From IMG/VR virus record IMGVR_UViG_2778261455_000003, positions 1 through 40,957 of that record: 40,957 nucleotides of DNA. The stretch is one strand, 5' to 3'. Under the pieces are notes generated by a model. It was not told where the DNA came from. It saw nothing but the letters and a program-made list of their open reading frames with translations, and did no database searches. This document shows, one piece after another, positions 4,632 to 12,672 of this stretch. Numbering within the stretch: the first letter of the stretch is position 1; every line of letters begins with the position of its first letter. Origin of the DNA: a virus. Taxonomy: Duplodnaviria; Heunggongvirae; Uroviricota; Caudoviricetes. The position numbers and the translations under genes were made by a program.

Positions 4632-4931
4632 TCACATCACCCTGAATCCGTTGCATTTACGTAAGAAATCGCAGATGTAGCCCTTCATTTTTTCGTGCCA
4701 ATCTCGATCATTCCCATTGCACCAACCATCAGGTGGAGTCCAGTTTTCTATCAGAGCAGCCATTTTCTTTGCTTTCGCCGGAGTAGCTGTTGCGGTATCG
4801 CAGTAATGACGAGTGTCAACCAAAGCATCCATACCATCGATATCAAGTATGCAAAACCATGTGTGATTCGGCATTTCAACAGATGGTGTTTGTTGCCCAC
4901 GTCGACGTTTATCAATAAGACATACAGTCAC
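4632..4931 (-). CDS. Hypothetical protein (99 aa, GTG start)
   Basis: GTG start with strong RBS AAGGAGG 7 nt upstream; overlaps the stop of the upstream gene. Confidence 0.45.
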   Translation of the reverse strand: MTVCLIDKRRRGQQTPSVEMPNHTWFCILDIDGMDALVDTRHYCDTATATPAKAKKMAALIENWTPPDGWCNGNDRDWHEKMKGYICDFLRKCNGFRVM

Positions 4932-8401: not shown

Positions 8402-8694
8402 TCACCTCCCAGAGCCTTGCTGATTGCTGCAAGACCTTTATTAACAGCTCCATACCATTCTGGATATGTTGTCGTTGTTCTATTTTTGGATTGCTTAAGT
8501 AATAACTGAAGTGCTTCGAGAAGGTCAGGTGCTGCCGCTATTAAATTGGCATCTTCAATACATTGAACTTCCTCACAGATTGCAATATACGAACGCCAGC
8601 CTGCGCCATTTTCAAGTGAGTCTGCCTGGATTATTTTAATCTCATCGCCATCCATCATTATTTCCCACTTACCTTCAGTACCTTTAAATTCCAT
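8398..8694 (-). CDS. Hypothetical acidic protein (98 aa)
   Basis: ATG MEFKGTEGKW… preceded by AGAGG; the track's longer version begins at a TTG. Confidence 0.45.
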   Translation of the reverse strand: MEFKGTEGKWEIMMDGDEIKIIQADSLENGAGWRSYIAICEEVQCIEDANLIAAAPDLLEALQLLLKQSKNRTTTTYPEWYGAVNKGLAAISKALGGE

Positions 8695-8741
8695 GTTAGC
8701 CTCTGTTGTTAGTGCCAAAAATAAAGGCCGACTATGCGGCC

Positions 8742-8924
8742 TCAGAATGGGTTGTATCCATGTTTAAAGGCGAAATCGTATGCCTCACCCTTAGTGCTGA
8801 AGTATTCATAATCAGCAAATCCATCACGATAAAACTTGCAGCACCAATGAGGCGGAATGCCATCCTCAGGGCCATAGTTTTGATGGAAAACATCCTCGAC
8901 GATTATATTTTCATCTTTTCCCAT
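8742..8924 (-). CDS. Hypothetical protein (60 aa)
   Basis: ATG preceded by GGGGTGAG; MGKDENIIVEDVFHQNYGPEDGIPPHWCCKFYRDG…. Confidence 0.4.
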   Translation of the reverse strand: MGKDENIIVEDVFHQNYGPEDGIPPHWCCKFYRDGFADYEYFSTKGEAYDFAFKHGYNPF

Positions 8925-8978
8925 ATCTCACCCCAAATAAGTGGTTTGCTGCGAAAGTAAATACGCTTAAGTTACCTG

Positions 8979-9116
8979 TTATTTATCCCACCAAGTTCCG
9001 TATCTATCTATCCAGATACACCAATCATCGACACTCCATTTTGTTGTGTCGCATTTTGGCAACTGGCATGAATATCTACCTTCTTTGTAAAGTCGGCGTT
9101 TGACTTTCTTGAGCAT
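8979..9116 (-). CDS. Small Cys-containing hypothetical protein (45 aa)
   Basis: RBS GAGGTGA before the ATG; MLKKVKRRLYKEGRYSCQLPKCDTTKWSVDDWCIWIDRYGTWWDK; found by manual translation. Confidence 0.35.
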   Translation of the reverse strand: MLKKVKRRLYKEGRYSCQLPKCDTTKWSVDDWCIWIDRYGTWWDK

Positions 9117-9124
9117 GGCTCACC

Positions 9125-9430
9125 TCAATCGTAATAAGCTGGAATTGATTTTCCGCGTTGCTTCTGGCGGCCTGAGCAAGTCACACCCATTTCACTGCGT
9201 GGCTTGCGGTAGTAAATACGGTTCTGTTTACGCTCGACTTCTTCTGCCTTCTTGCAGCGAAGGCTTCCGAGTGATGCTGCTTTATCTGCTCTGACGCAAC
9301 CAGAGAGCTTTAGCGCAATTTTTCGCGCCAGTCGCTGCTCTTGCATTGCCTGTTCACGTTGAGCCTGTCTGCGTGCTCTGCGGCGATTTCTGGCGTTATC
9401 GTCAGCCAGATATGTAATGACTACTGTCAT
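9125..9430 (-). CDS. N: N-type transcription antiterminator
   Basis: 101-aa ORF with RBS GGAGG; arginine-rich N-terminal motif NARNRRRARRQAQ; C-terminus …YYRKPRSEMGVTCSGRQKQRGKSIP resembles lambda N …WYSKPGERGITCSGRQKIKGKSIP. Confidence 0.75.
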   Translation of the reverse strand: MTVVITYLADDNARNRRRARRQAQREQAMQEQRLARKIALKLSGCVRADKAASLGSLRCKKAEEVERKQNRIYYRKPRSEMGVTCSGRQKQRGKSIPAYYD

Positions 9431-9740
9431 GTTGACCTCCGATGAAACAACTTTGGAATTGATAGTGATTGCAAAGTGGTTTCTGGCCCCTCGAACTGAG
9501 GGGCAGAAAGAGCATCTCGCCACCTAATAGGTCAATGCTCGGATCGAGAGATTTAATTAACCTCGGTTTTGAAGTTATGCATTCACATAAATCCTCCTGT
9601 TGCATGTGCAGCATTGGCTGTGTTTGGCGGCTGCATTTCGCCTATGGAATTGACTTTGGCGGTGACGCGCCGGGTGCTTATCTTCCGGTTGCCGTCGTGC
9701 AGCTGCACTTCACGTCACCCCAAAGCCAACTACTCTTTGG

Positions 9741-9782
9741 TTCCCGCATTTCGGCGGGACAATCCCATCAATGTTAAAGAGC
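9741..9782 (-). promoter_or_regulatory. nutL-like site (boxA GCTCTTTAACA, boxB hairpin TCCCGCCGAAATGCGGGA)
   Basis: Read on the minus strand between the candidate pL and N; the same boxA and boxB recur on the plus strand downstream of cro. Confidence 0.55.
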
Positions 9783-9828
9783 CTGCCAATCTGTTCCGTT
9801 TGGCTTCCAGCGTCCTGCTGATGGCTAA

Positions 9829-9916
9829 AGAATACTGTAGGTATTTTATTGTGTAAATACCCAAGGTATTTATTTTTGGTGAAATAATGATAAGCAAATG
9901 AATACAAAGGATATTT
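9829..9916 (-). promoter_or_regulatory. Candidate OL operators and pL promoter
   Basis: Three 17-bp inverted repeats of the AATAC-N5-GTATT type at 9830..9846, 9855..9871 and 9900..9916; minus-strand -35 TTTACA and -10 TATTCT with 17-bp spacing overlap them. Confidence 0.5.
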
Positions 9917-10001
9917 ATTTTTTCGGTGTCTGCTTGTTCAGTGCTTTTTATGCGGGATATGTGAAGTGGATCCCGATAGCTATTGCTGCCGGGATTATAG
10001 G

Positions 10002-10370
10002 TTAGTCAGCGAAGGTTAAGACGAGAATTACCTTAATGATGTCTGCTACAACAGACACGGCCATAGATAAACCAAAGACGATCCAAGCCACAGTGATGTC
10101 TTCACTACCATCGTATAGAGTTCCGTAATCACTGGTGTAAGGCGTAAATGTCGCGCCTTGATACAACAGGTATAAGCTTGATCCATAGAGGATAAATGCA
10201 GATATCCCTTGTATTGCTATGACCACTAGAATCATGAAACGAGCTGATCTATGCGCCCAAGCCTGGCTTATTTTTTCTGATAGAGATTTCGCAATAAAAG
10301 CATGCGCTAAGCCGTAAATTGTTGAGATTGCCAACATCCCAAAAAAGCTTGCTATAGCGGTTCCAACCAT
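10002..10370 (-). CDS. Small multi-pass membrane protein co-transcribed downstream of cI; unknown function
   Basis: ATG preceded by AAGGGGAG, 15 nt after the cI stop; about 122 aa with three long hydrophobic segments; occupies the rexAB position relative to cI and N. Confidence 0.55.
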   Translation of the reverse strand: MVGTAIASFFGMLAISTIYGLAHAFIAKSLSEKISQAWAHRSARFMILVVIAIQGISAFILYGSSLYLLYQGATFTPYTSDYGTLYDGSEDITVAWIVFGLSMAVSVVADIIKVILVLTFAD

Positions 10371-10387
10371 AAGCTCCCCTTGCGTGA

Positions 10388-11104
10388 TCAAACCAGCCTT
10401 AGTTTTGTCTCAATTGCAACGCCTATAATCTTGCAGTTTCCATTGATTGGCACGAGAGGCCATGCAGGATTAAGTCCCTTGAGGTATTTATTTCCGCCGT
10501 CGATTATCAGCTTCTTGAATGTTGCTTCGTTAGAGTCAGAAAGTTTTGCTATGACCAAGCTGCCGTTGATCGCCTCCCTTCCGGTATCGAAAAGAACGAA
10601 TGTCCCCTCTGGGATGCTTAACCCAACCGGTGCCGTCATTGAATCACCTTCCACTTTAAGCCAGAACGCATTACCTTGAATATGCGCGTCAGACTCAAGC
10701 CAAACATCTATGTCTTTAATGGTGTATGGTTCGCATGCTTCACACCACGAGCCAGCCTGGATACTGCTTAACACCGGATACCTCTTTCCTGCTCTGTATT
10801 CCCCTGCATACCTTACGTTGGCATCGCTCTTAAGGCTTTCTGCCTGTTCTGCAACCTTGGCAGCAATTGACTGGCTAAAATCAGCAATTGAGACTTGCAA
10901 CAAACGTGCAAAACCAGATGCGACCTCAACGTTTAGCGCGTTTCTGCCATTAAGATAATGCCCTACCGCTCCTTGGGTGATACCCAGTTCATCAGCGATT
11001 GAGTATTGGGTTATTCCCAATTCTTTCTTTTTTGACTCATACAAAGCCTTAAGCCGCTTAGCGTCTTCGAGCTGTTCTGTCGTCAGTGATTTTTTATTTT
11101 CCAT
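10388..11104 (-). CDS. cI: CI-type prophage repressor (HTH plus LexA-like S24 domain)
   Basis: 238-aa ORF; N-terminus …LTTEQLEDAKRLKALYESKKKELGITQ…, similar to lambda cI …[27 protein letters not shown]…; C-terminal GDSMTAP / FKKLI motifs. Confidence 0.9.
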   Translation of the reverse strand: MENKKSLTTEQLEDAKRLKALYESKKKELGITQYSIADELGITQGAVGHYLNGRNALNVEVASGFARLLQVSIADFSQSIAAKVAEQAESLKSDANVRYAGEYRAGKRYPVLSSIQAGSWCEACEPYTIKDIDVWLESDAHIQGNAFWLKVEGDSMTAPVGLSIPEGTFVLFDTGREAINGSLVIAKLSDSNEATFKKLIIDGGNKYLKGLNPAWPLVPINGNCKIIGVAIETKLRLV

Positions 11105-11210
11105 AGCTTAATTCTAATAGCTAAGGTACTTAAATTAAAAATACCCTGAGTATTGATTGCTTTGAATACCTGTAGTATTCTTTGTTCATGGTTAATAACG
11201 GAGAGTGCAT
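11105..11210. promoter_or_regulatory. OR region: candidate operators with divergent pRM and pR
   Basis: Inverted repeats AAATACCCTGAGTATT (11139..11154) and GAATACCTGTAGTATTC (11164..11180), same family as the OL repeats; plus-strand -35 TTGATT and -10 TATTCT (17-bp spacer) overlap them ahead of cro. Confidence 0.55.
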
Positions 11211-11405
11211 ATGATTCGAATGACACTTGCCGATTACGCCAAAATCCATGGACAGGCTAAAGCAGCCAGTGACTTTGGTGTAATCCAGTGCGCTATCAGC
11301 AAGGCCATTCTGGCAGGCCGTAACATCATGGTTACGGTAAAGCCTGATGGCAGTGTGATTGGAGAGGAAGTTCGTCCTTTCCCAAGCAACAAGAAAAACA
11401 AATAG
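11211..11405 (+). CDS. cro: Cro-type repressor
   Basis: ATG after [71 protein letters not shown] resembles lambda Cro. Confidence 0.85.
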
Positions 11406-11411
11406 TAACAC

Positions 11412-11455
11412 CGCTCTTTAACAGTCATGGTCCTCATTCCCGCCGAAATGCGGGA
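11412..11455 (+). promoter_or_regulatory. nutR-like site (boxA CGCTCTTTAACA, boxB hairpin TCCCGCCGAAATGCGGGA)
   Basis: Immediately downstream of the cro stop; boxB identical to the nutL copy. Confidence 0.55.
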
Positions 11456-11513
11456 ATACAACGCGCATAAGTTGATGCGCATAACTTCTTATTAGTTAAG
11501 GAAATACTTACAT

Positions 11514-11792
11514 ATGGAACTTACAAGTGCTCGCAAGAAAGCGAATGCAATTACAAGCAACATCCTGAATCGAATTGCTGTACGTGGTCAGCGAAAGGTT
11601 GCCGACGCGTTAGGGATTAATGAATCGCAAATTTCGCGATGGAAAGACAGCTTCATCCCAAAAATGGGAATGCTTCTGGCTGTTCTTGAATGGGGTGTTG
11701 AAGACGAGGAGTTGGCGGAACTGGCTAAGAAAGTAGCCAGAATGCTGACAAAAGAAAAAGCCCCGAAGAACGGCGAATTCTTCGAGGCCTGA
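11514..11792 (+). CDS. cII: CII-type transcriptional activator
   Basis: 92-aa ORF; …QISRWKDSFIPKMGMLLAVLEWGVEDEELAELAKKVARMLT resembles lambda cII …QISRWKRDWIPKFSMLLAVLEWGVVDDDMARLARQVAAILT. Confidence 0.8.
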   Translation: MELTSARKKANAITSNILNRIAVRGQRKVADALGINESQISRWKDSFIPKMGMLLAVLEWGVEDEELAELAKKVARMLTKEKAPKNGEFFEA

Positions 11793-11826
11793 TGTAGAAA
11801 GACTGGATCAATCCACAGGAGTCATT

Positions 11827-12672
11827 ATGACAAATACAGCAAAAATACTCAACTTCGGCAGAGGTAACTTTGCCGAACAGGAGCGAAGAGTGGCTGATAT
11901 CGATGATGGTTACACCAGATTCGCTAACGAGCTGCTGGAAGCTATCGCAAGTGCCGATTTAACCGCTCGCCAGTTGAAAGTTATGCTGGCCTACGTCCGG
12001 AAAACATATGGATTCAATAAGAAAACAGATCGAATAGCCGATGAGCAAATTGCTCAGTTAACAGGACTATCAAGGCAGAATGTTAACAAGGCTAAAAAAG
12101 AACTGATTTCAATGAATTGCCTGTTTATGGATGGAAATAAAATCGGTGTAAACAGGGAGGTATCTGCGTGGCAATTCAGCAAGTGTCTCCAAGTTAGCAA
12201 CTTTGTCTCGAAGTTAGAGACAAAAAATGTCTCTAAATTAGAGACACTCAATGTCTCGAAGTTAGAGACACACAAAAGACATTCTTTAAAGACAAAAGAA
12301 AATATTAATAAACCCCCTATATCCCCCAAAAAAGTTTCTCAGAAGTTCGACCCGCTAGAAACAGAGTTGCCTGATTGGTTATCAGCAGAAACATGGTTGT
12401 CTTGGGTTACCTATCGCAAGGAGATAGGTAAGTCGATCAAGTCTAAGCAAAGTGTCACTCAGGCTATCAACGTTCTAAGCAGAAGTCTGGAGAAGGGATA
12501 TACACCTGAAGAAATTATAAACCAGAGCATCGCCAGTGGTTGGCAGGGGATTTTTGAGCCCAAGACTCCAAAGGGGAAACCTCAACCTAGGCCGCAGCAT
12601 CGAGCTATGCAGGAAAACTTTGCCGCCAAAGATTACGGACAAACTGAAATGCCTTCATGGGCGCAGGAGTGA
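11827..12672 (+). CDS. O: Replication initiator, lambda O type
   Basis: 281-aa ORF; N-terminus MTNTAKILNFGRGNFAEQERRVADIDDGY… near-identical to the lambda O N-terminus; iterons lie inside the gene. Confidence 0.85.
   Translation: MTNTAKILNFGRGNFAEQERRVADIDDGYTRFANELLEAIASADLTARQLKVMLAYVRKTYGFNKKTDRIADEQIAQLTGLSRQNVNKAKKELISMNCLFMDGNKIGVNREVSAWQFSKCLQVSNFVSKLETKNVSKLETLNVSKLETHKRHSLKTKENINKPPISPKKVSQKFDPLETELPDWLSAETWLSWVTYRKEIGKSIKSKQSVTQAINVLSRSLEKGYTPEEIINQSIASGWQGIFEPKTPKGKPQPRPQHRAMQENFAAKDYGQTEMPSWAQE
12184..12270. repeat. Replication-origin iterons inside O
   Basis: Three perfect 19-bp palindromic copies of TGTCTC(G/T)AA(G/A)TTAGAGACA at 12204, 12228 and 12252 (24-bp phasing), plus a degenerate copy at 12184, followed by an AT-rich tract. 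Confidence 0.6.

Follow-up and report, generated by a model that had tools for sequence, protein, structure and literature searches.

Two boxA–boxB sites around the immunity region of a P22-like coliphage are very probably nutL and nutR of the HK620 type

The closest described counterpart of the early region considered here is that of phage HK620, whose GenBank record (AF335538; Clark et al. 2001, J Mol Biol 311:657) annotates nutL, nutR, pL, pR, OL1-3, OR1-3 and tR1; the records of mEpX2 and HK140 carry annotations for the boxA elements only. The layout is like that of lambda, pL-nutL-N on one side and pR-cro-nutR-cII on the other, but for the nut sites and the N protein the informative relative is phage 21 rather than lambda, having a hexaloop boxB and a homologous N. 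We have analyzed a stretch of 40,957 nucleotides, positions 1 to 40,957 of IMG/VR virus record IMGVR_UViG_2778261455_000003 (Caudoviricetes), which is referred to below as the window, and in which an 18-mer hairpin sequence preceded by a boxA element occurs on either side of the immunity region. In its structural genes the window resembles P22, with IME10 as the nearest phage, and the 18-mers together with their boxA elements very probably represent nutL and nutR in a P22-like coliphage that has an HK620-type early-regulation module. Sequence, position, fold, homology and the co-inheritance of motif and loop, on which we base this view, are direct observations. The annotated nutL of HK620 maps to window positions 9742-9783 (42/42 identical) and its nutR to 11412-11457 (46/46), and pL and pR are likewise the same in the two phages. 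The identification of nutL and nutR is thus correct but already known, as both have been annotated in HK620 since 2001.

The preliminary description of this DNA, made from the letters alone, had proposed that one identical hairpin lies in each early transcript, that a boxA precedes each hairpin and that the two sites flank the immunity region, all of which was borne out. A search of the whole window returned exactly two copies of the 18-mer TCCCGCCGAAATGCGGGA, at 9742-9759 (-) and 11438-11455 (+), each in the sense of its transcript, and no further copies at up to 2 mismatches; 100 shuffles gave 0. The 11-mer GCTCTTTAACA is found exactly at 9772-9782 (-) and 11413-11423 (+) only, against 0.07 expected, and just 1/100 shuffles contained at least two exact occurrences; taken alone and with 1 mismatch allowed, it is not significant in the window. 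The base immediately 5′ of boxA is a C in the right copy (CGCTCTTTAACA) and a G in the left copy (GGCTCTTTAACA). Bracketed by the two sites are pL/OL, a small membrane-protein gene, cI, OR/pR and cro. The parts of the sites are as follows.

9772..9783, minus strand: nutL boxA, GGCUCUUUAACA in the pL transcript, with the exact 11-mer, inside the nutL annotated in HK620 and of the rrn-consensus type.
9760..9771, minus strand: nutL spacer UUGAUGGGAUUG, 12 nt, kept in nutL-type copies across IMG/VR contigs.
9742..9759, minus strand: nutL boxB hairpin, stem UCCCGC/GCGGGA, hexaloop CGAAAU.
11412..11423, plus strand: nutR boxA CGCUCUUUAACA, with the exact 11-mer, 7 nt past the cro stop codon.
11424..11437, plus strand: nutR spacer GUCAUGGUCCUCAU, 14 nt, from the sequence.
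11436..11457, plus strand: nutR boxB hairpin, whose core (11438-11455) is the same as the nutL boxB and whose stem is lengthened to 8 bp by AU/AU.

These are the features of lambdoid nut sites, namely a boxA 5′ of a short hairpin, spacers of 12/14 nt and one site per divergent early transcript. The 18-mer is predicted to form a hairpin of 6 bp around a 6-nt loop (-9.7 kcal/mol, z -2.9), which the nutR boxB lengthens by two A-U pairs, and the nutL hairpin is retained when the whole 366-nt N leader is folded. Both the leftward and the rightward copy show the loop strand CGAAAU to their own transcript. Among IMG/VR contigs, 14 distinct versions of the boxB hairpin were collected, a small sample in which neither the CGAAAU loop nor the two stem pairs next to it vary (14/14). 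The changes fall elsewhere in the stem: the second pair goes from G-C to A-U in contigs L049 and L085, the sixth from U-A to U.G in L051, L052 and L088, and the nutR extension pairs from A-U/U-A to G-C/C-G, with both-sided changes at three pairs. Paired cells amount to 87.5%, compared with 31-60% when the partners are slid by 1-3 columns. Judged from this comparison, the pattern of variation points to an RNA hairpin that is read through its loop.

An N homologue with an arginine-rich N-terminus had also been proposed, and is indeed encoded by the open reading frame (ORF) 9430..9125 (-), which opens with MTVVITYLADDNARNRRRARRQAQREQ.

9125..9430, minus strand: N gene, downstream of nutL, 101 aa from the ATG at 9430, with the Shine-Dalgarno sequence GGAGG upstream.
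9350..9400, minus strand: codons of the arginine-rich motif, residues 11-27 (DNARNRRRARRQAQREQ), from the ORF translation and the phage 21 N alignment.
Motif alignment, in register: phage 21 GTAKSRYKARRAELIAERR; window DNARNRRRARRQAQREQAM.

The protein matches PHROG 271 ‘anti-termination protein N-like’ (E 2.4e-36) and, in a gapless BLASTP alignment, phage 21 N (65% identity, E 1e-41); its residues 62-98 align with lambda N positions 74-109 as present in the cryo-electron microscopy complex PDB 6GOV (E 2.6e-6). The identity with phage 21 N is unevenly distributed, 6 of the first 33 residues being shared and then about 57 of the next 64. In tblastn searches N is a three-part mosaic: residues 1-36 are found only in phages with the CGAAAU nut type, residues 37-64 are common to the N proteins of phage 21 and VT1-Sakai, and residues 63-101 recur in the N of phage 21 and SfI and, at a greater distance, in that of lambda. 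Within the motif, A13, R16, A19, R20 and R21 are conserved between the window and phage 21. The core, AxxRRRxRR, reads ARNRRRARR in the window and is nearer to that of lambda (AQTRRRERR) than to that of phage 21, with an Ala at the place of lambda Trp18.

That the boxB sequence reflects the specificity of N was the remaining claim of the preliminary description, and comparison between phages backs it, the boxB type tracking the type of arginine-rich motif without exception in about 180 viral contigs. IMG/VR was scanned first by the exact 18-mer (at least 120 contigs, selected by boxB) and second by N homology (80 N-homologue loci). The contigs are closely related and their counts are not independent events, the first set having moreover been chosen by exact boxB match. 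Most contigs of the first scan carry, among the matches listed, two divergent copies 1152-2990 bp apart, a distance for which at least nine length classes can be told apart. BoxA adjoins cro 3′ ends of several kinds, similarity stopping directly 5′ of it. Immunity cassettes of many kinds thus lie between the members of the nut pair. Again among the matches listed, in 101/103 nutL-type copies an ORF with the motif YLADDNARNRRRARR or a mild variant lies 125-633 nt downstream, and even the divergent N bodies of L014, L049 and L051 retain the core LA(D/S)D(N/T)A(R/K)NRRR(A/E)RR. In the second scan, all of about 67 loci with the HK620-type motif have a CGAAAU boxB at nutL and nutR, all 10 loci with the phage 21 motif have a CUAA(C/U)(C/A/U) boxB, and no mixed case, at nutL or nutR, is found among them. 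VT1-Sakai combines the phage 21 motif and boxB with an HK620-type C-terminus, PA28 combines them with a third C-terminus, and the link between motif and boxB holds over at least three C-terminal modules of N and over at least nine classes of boxB-to-boxB distance. VT1-Sakai and PA28 on the one hand, and the window phage and HK620 on the other, have unlike C-termini in spite of a common motif and boxB; it is therefore the motif, rather than the remainder of N, that boxB goes with. On this comparative evidence, the boxB type is independent of both the C-terminal module of N and the immunity cassette, and the different mosaic contexts lend the counts partial independence.

Two contigs deserve separate mention. 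Contig L008 (IMGVR_UViG_3300025875_000047) carries at 4691-4708 an exact 18-mer without boxA and in an unrelated context, the only such case among the matches listed. In L095, the boxB of the nutR copy is broken off after TCCCGCCG and the sequence continues as TGAACCGCCCCGGGTTT, a junction resembling the end of an IS3-family insertion sequence, which would make this a disrupted nutR.

A first alternative concerns the mode of action rather than the identity of the sites. They could be real nut sites working in a reduced, H-19B-like mode, in which boxB and NusA are enough and boxA with NusB/S10 is dispensable. The HK620 record calls its N similar to the N proteins of H-19B and phage 21, and H-19B N is active with NusA and NusG in vitro (PMC3526286). 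However, boxA has the perfect rrn consensus and is essentially invariant at both sites, which argues for selection; the H-19B motif, RSRRRER, is unlike that of the window; and no spacer dyad resembling the H-19B ‘reducer’ is evident in the fold. We consider this mode unlikely. Much less probable still is that the 18-mers act at the level of DNA, as inverted repeats forming recombination joints or ‘boundary sequences’ for the exchange of immunity cassettes that have no RNA function of their own. It is true that boxA-boxB modules flank at least nine length classes and several cro 3′ ends, with similarity ending right 5′ of boxA, but a mosaic joint at nut is expected from a conserved functional sequence and is no alternative to it. 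Such boundaries would also leave unexplained that the same loop strand is in transcript sense at both copies, that the stem changes are of the RNA type (U-A to U.G, G-C to A-U), that boxA precedes each copy at a fixed distance and that the boxB type tracks the N motif perfectly. Finally, that the hairpins are terminators, Rho-loading or RNase processing elements and not N-binding sites is scarcely credible: lambda nutR does overlap the rut sites of tR1 (J02459 annotation), the HK620 record puts a putative tR1 straight after nutR, and a second conserved hairpin lies past the nutR boxB, but an identical loop in two unlike contexts that co-varies with the motif is not expected of a terminator, an overlap with Rho sites would add to nut function, as in lambda, rather than exclude it, and an intrinsic terminator is rejected for both hairpins, since neither is followed by a U-tract (the 3′ sequences are AAUACAACG and ACCAAAGAG) and neither is called by the terminator scan.

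Besides the relatedness of the contigs and their selection by boxB, several points weigh against the assignment of the two elements as complete nut sites served by this N. In three nutR variants the third stem pair is mismatched (C.A or C.C), and the same variants have a G-C extension. In H-19B, boxA was reportedly found dispensable by Neely and Friedman in 2000, and the role of boxA in the present phage is for that reason not certain. With Pfam N_peptide (PF25694), N scores 19.1 bits, below the cut-off of 27.9, and an NCBIfam search of N gave no match, so that membership of the N family rests on PHROG and on the homology with phage 21 and lambda. Rfam, run over 8500-12500 at E <= 1, returned no boxB or nut family; a SCARNA7 match in the same search is spurious. 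The terminator scan identified no intrinsic terminator between nutR and cII, and the tR1 of the HK620 record (AF335538) is a putative feature of only 7 nt; tR1 would therefore be Rho-dependent here, as in lambda. A search of a library of papers turned up neither the motif nor the boxB sequence string, and no published biochemical test of an HK620-type N/boxB pair; among its matches, HK620 together with boxB or antitermination is mentioned only in passing.

If the sites are nutL and nutR, as we favor, the early region would work as follows. RNA polymerase starting at pL would meet nutL about 40 nt downstream of the start, and polymerase starting at pR would meet nutR directly after cro. In each transcript, the boxA RNA GCUCUUUAACA would be the site for NusB/NusE(S10), and the boxB with its 6-bp stem and CGAAAU loop would be the target of the N-terminal arginine-rich helix (A13-R-N-R-R-R-A-R-R21) of the N that the phage itself encodes. 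The remainder of this N, with a middle part shared with phage 21 and a C-terminus homologous to the polymerase-binding end of lambda N, would then make contact with NusA and polymerase, and the modified elongation complex would pass terminators located past N and past nutR and continue into the delayed-early genes. The binding of N to boxB, the use of Nus factors, the geometry of the loop and antitermination itself are what we infer from the observations above. One candidate target of N, resembling tL1, lies in the leftward operon.

8724..8743, minus strand: terminator-like hairpin GAGGCCGCAUAGUCGGCCUU followed by UAUUUUU, downstream of N, from a consensus scan only.

To the right, a second hairpin (11463-11480 (+), GCGCAU-AAGUUG-AUGCGC) lies 8 nt past the nutR boxB, directly ahead of AUAACUUCUUAUU. 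IMG/VR contigs conserve it, in variants that still pair (e.g. GCGCAU...GUGCGU), and at the corresponding position phage 21 carries another hairpin, likewise followed by AUAAC. This second hairpin was not called as an intrinsic terminator by the scan and may be part of tR1.

The leader of N has structure of its own. As a whole, its 366 nt fold with a z of -4.16, and just 3′ of the nutL boxB, at about 9649-9733 (-), there is a conserved stem of about 23 bp that is maintained among the HK620, phage 21, PA28 and VT1-Sakai types, both partners having changed in three of its pairs. In position it is analogous to the lambda N-leader hairpin that RNase III processes. In the minimum free energy fold, boxA can pair with AAAGAG 3′ of the nutL boxB, but this pairing was not adopted because the competing leader stem CCAAAG/CTTTGG is the conserved one, and a natural variant breaks the boxA pairing without compensation. 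Between the conserved stem and the Shine-Dalgarno sequence of N lies a 204-bp insertion (9445-9648 (-)) that contains AGGAGG-ATG-TGA, a 9-codon ORF and the hairpin GCCCCUCAGUUCGAGGGGC. The insertion is also present in HK140 and is absent from HK620 and phage 21. It occurs in 75/5426 E. coli genomes, in one copy each and two at most, and was rejected as a mobile element on that ground. Insertions of other lengths are found at the same spot of the leader in other contigs, where the distances from boxB to the motif are 125, ~330, 349, 376 and 462 nt.

The region bracketed by the nut sites, as placed by mapping the HK620 features and by domain searches, contains the following elements.

9822..9857, minus strand: pL, HK620 feature mapping 36/36, promoter-like (TTTACA-17-TATTCT), the start of the nutL transcript.
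9830-9846 and 9855-9871: OL1 and OL2, overlapped by pL, HK620 features, 17/17 each.
9877-9893: OL3, HK620 feature, one mismatch.
10388..11104, minus strand: cI repressor, HTH_3 and Peptidase_S24, between the nut sites.
11115-11180: OR1-OR3, HK620 features, 17/17 each.
11153..11188, plus strand: pR, HK620 feature mapping 36/36, the start of the cro and nutR transcript.
11211..11405, plus strand: cro, Pfam Cro, E 3.6e-26.

The gene following nutR is cII. The gene at 10002-10391 (-), which separates cI from pL and occupies the place of lambda rexAB, encodes a small hydrophobic, hkaS-like protein for which no convincing family match was obtained. Further to the right, the O-like replication gene contains at about 12180-12290 (+) repeated units GTCTC(T/G)AA(G/A)TTAGAGACA, which are probably ori iterons. 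Over 2.7 kb, the DNA here shows 97-99% identity with the immunity regions of HK140, HK620, HK630, mEpX2 and others. Differences from HK620 are the following: the N proteins are 98% identical over the first 64 residues (63/64) but end in unrelated C-termini, phage 21/lambda-like in the window (...VERKQNRIYYRKPRSEMGVTCSGRQK...) and ...CSGSICLPNVAIYAAGYRKSKQLTAR in HK620; the 204-bp leader insertion is lacking in HK620; and the HK620 replication genes are unlike those of the window. An 86-nt nutR segment is present in 501/5426 complete E. coli genomes, at an identity of at least 99% in 310, and among the matches listed no RefSeq feature is annotated under it, which constitutes an annotation gap for a nutR that is common in E. 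coli genomes. The practical value of the sites is otherwise small, since they are textbook elements of which identical copies are annotated in HK620; what is mildly new is only the cassette-swap comparison of phage 21 with HK620 and the reading of the loop as a GNRA loop flanked by C.U, to which we now turn.

The boxA of the window, GCUCUUUAACA, equals the rrn sequence UGCUCUUUAACAA across 11 nt and is also the same as that of phage 21; it is nearly invariant at both sites in the contigs examined, single-base variants being rare. The rrn boxA-spacer is given as ugcucuuuaacaauuua and the lambda boxA as cgcucuua (PMC2724277). Unlike rrn antitermination, which requires no N-boxB interaction, the boxA of the window is coupled to a phage-specific boxB. 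Lambda differs in having the boxA CGCUCUUA and a spacer of 8-9 nt, and its boxB, GCCCUGAAAAAGGGC at nutR and with a GAAGA loop at nutL, has a 5-bp stem and a pentaloop with a U-A closing pair, whereas that of the window has a 6-bp stem and a hexaloop in which C...U surrounds GAAA. What is shared with lambda is the GNRA-type GAAA content of the loop and the C-terminus of N (lambda residues 74-109). Membership of the lambda specificity class (pentaloop GAARA, Trp18) is ruled out by the hexaloop on a 6-bp stem and by the Ala at the Trp18 position; full orthogonality to lambda N is nevertheless not established, because the loop contains GAAA and the core of the motif is lambda-like (RRRxRR). In P22 (GACAA pentaloop, PDB 1A4T), an arginine-rich motif reads a GNRA-like loop too, and P22 is also the phage type to which the structural genes of the window belong, but its loop differs in length and sequence and P22-type N (gene 24) shares the C-terminal part only (~54%). 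H-19B is ruled out as the nearest relative by its motif RSRRRER, and the Stx phages VT1-Sakai and PA28 have the motif and boxB of phage 21.

With phage 21, the comparison is more instructive. In lambda imm21 and VT1-Sakai, the 5′ flank and boxA of nutL are identical to those of the window (...ggaagccaaacggaacagattggcaggctctttaaca), and the N leader 3′ of boxB is homologous as well; what has been abruptly replaced is no more than the spacer end and the boxB hairpin, and the start of the spacer, ATTGATGG, is common even to some phage 21-type contigs. The boxB of phage 21 also has a 6-nt loop with C first and AA in the middle, but the loop is CUAACC rather than CGAAAU and the stems are unrelated. 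Moreover, its stems differ between nutL (UCUCAAC-CUAACC-GUUGAGA) and nutR (UCACCU-CUAACC-GGGUGA), whereas the cores in the window are identical at both sites. The motifs are likewise distinct, ARNRRRARRQAQREQ in the window and AKSRYKARRAELIAERR in phage 21, and membership of the phage 21 specificity class (CUAACC loop, motif GTAKSRYKARRAELIAERR) is ruled out by the CGAAAU loop and by an identity of 6/33 among the first residues of N. A nuclear magnetic resonance structure of the phage 21 N/boxB complex is PDB 1NYB (Cilley and Williamson 2003). PMC12550061, in describing this complex, presents CUAACC as a GNRA-like UMAC turn with a flanking non-canonical C-C pair. By analogy, the loop of the window, C[GAAA]U, would be a hexaloop of the phage 21 style in which C.U borders a true GNRA tetraloop.

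The motif ARNRRRARRQAQREQ and the boxB UCCCGC-CGAAAU-GCGGGA may then form a distinct, biochemically uncharacterised N-peptide/boxB specificity class beside those of lambda, P22, phage 21 and H-19B, a proposal that we make tentatively and with slightly less than even confidence. Such a class might combine a hexaloop frame with its C.U flank, a genuine GNRA tetraloop and an RRRxRR core that lacks the stacking Trp. If so, and if the pair is orthogonal to the N proteins of lambda, P22 and phage 21, the swap of a small cassette would re-specify a single helix/loop scaffold, and one more pair for RNA tethering would be at hand. Phage 21 and HK620 provide a natural swap, in which motif and boxB are replaced together in an otherwise near-identical N and nutL, and which may serve studies of peptide-RNA recognition or the search for orthogonal N/boxB tethering pairs.

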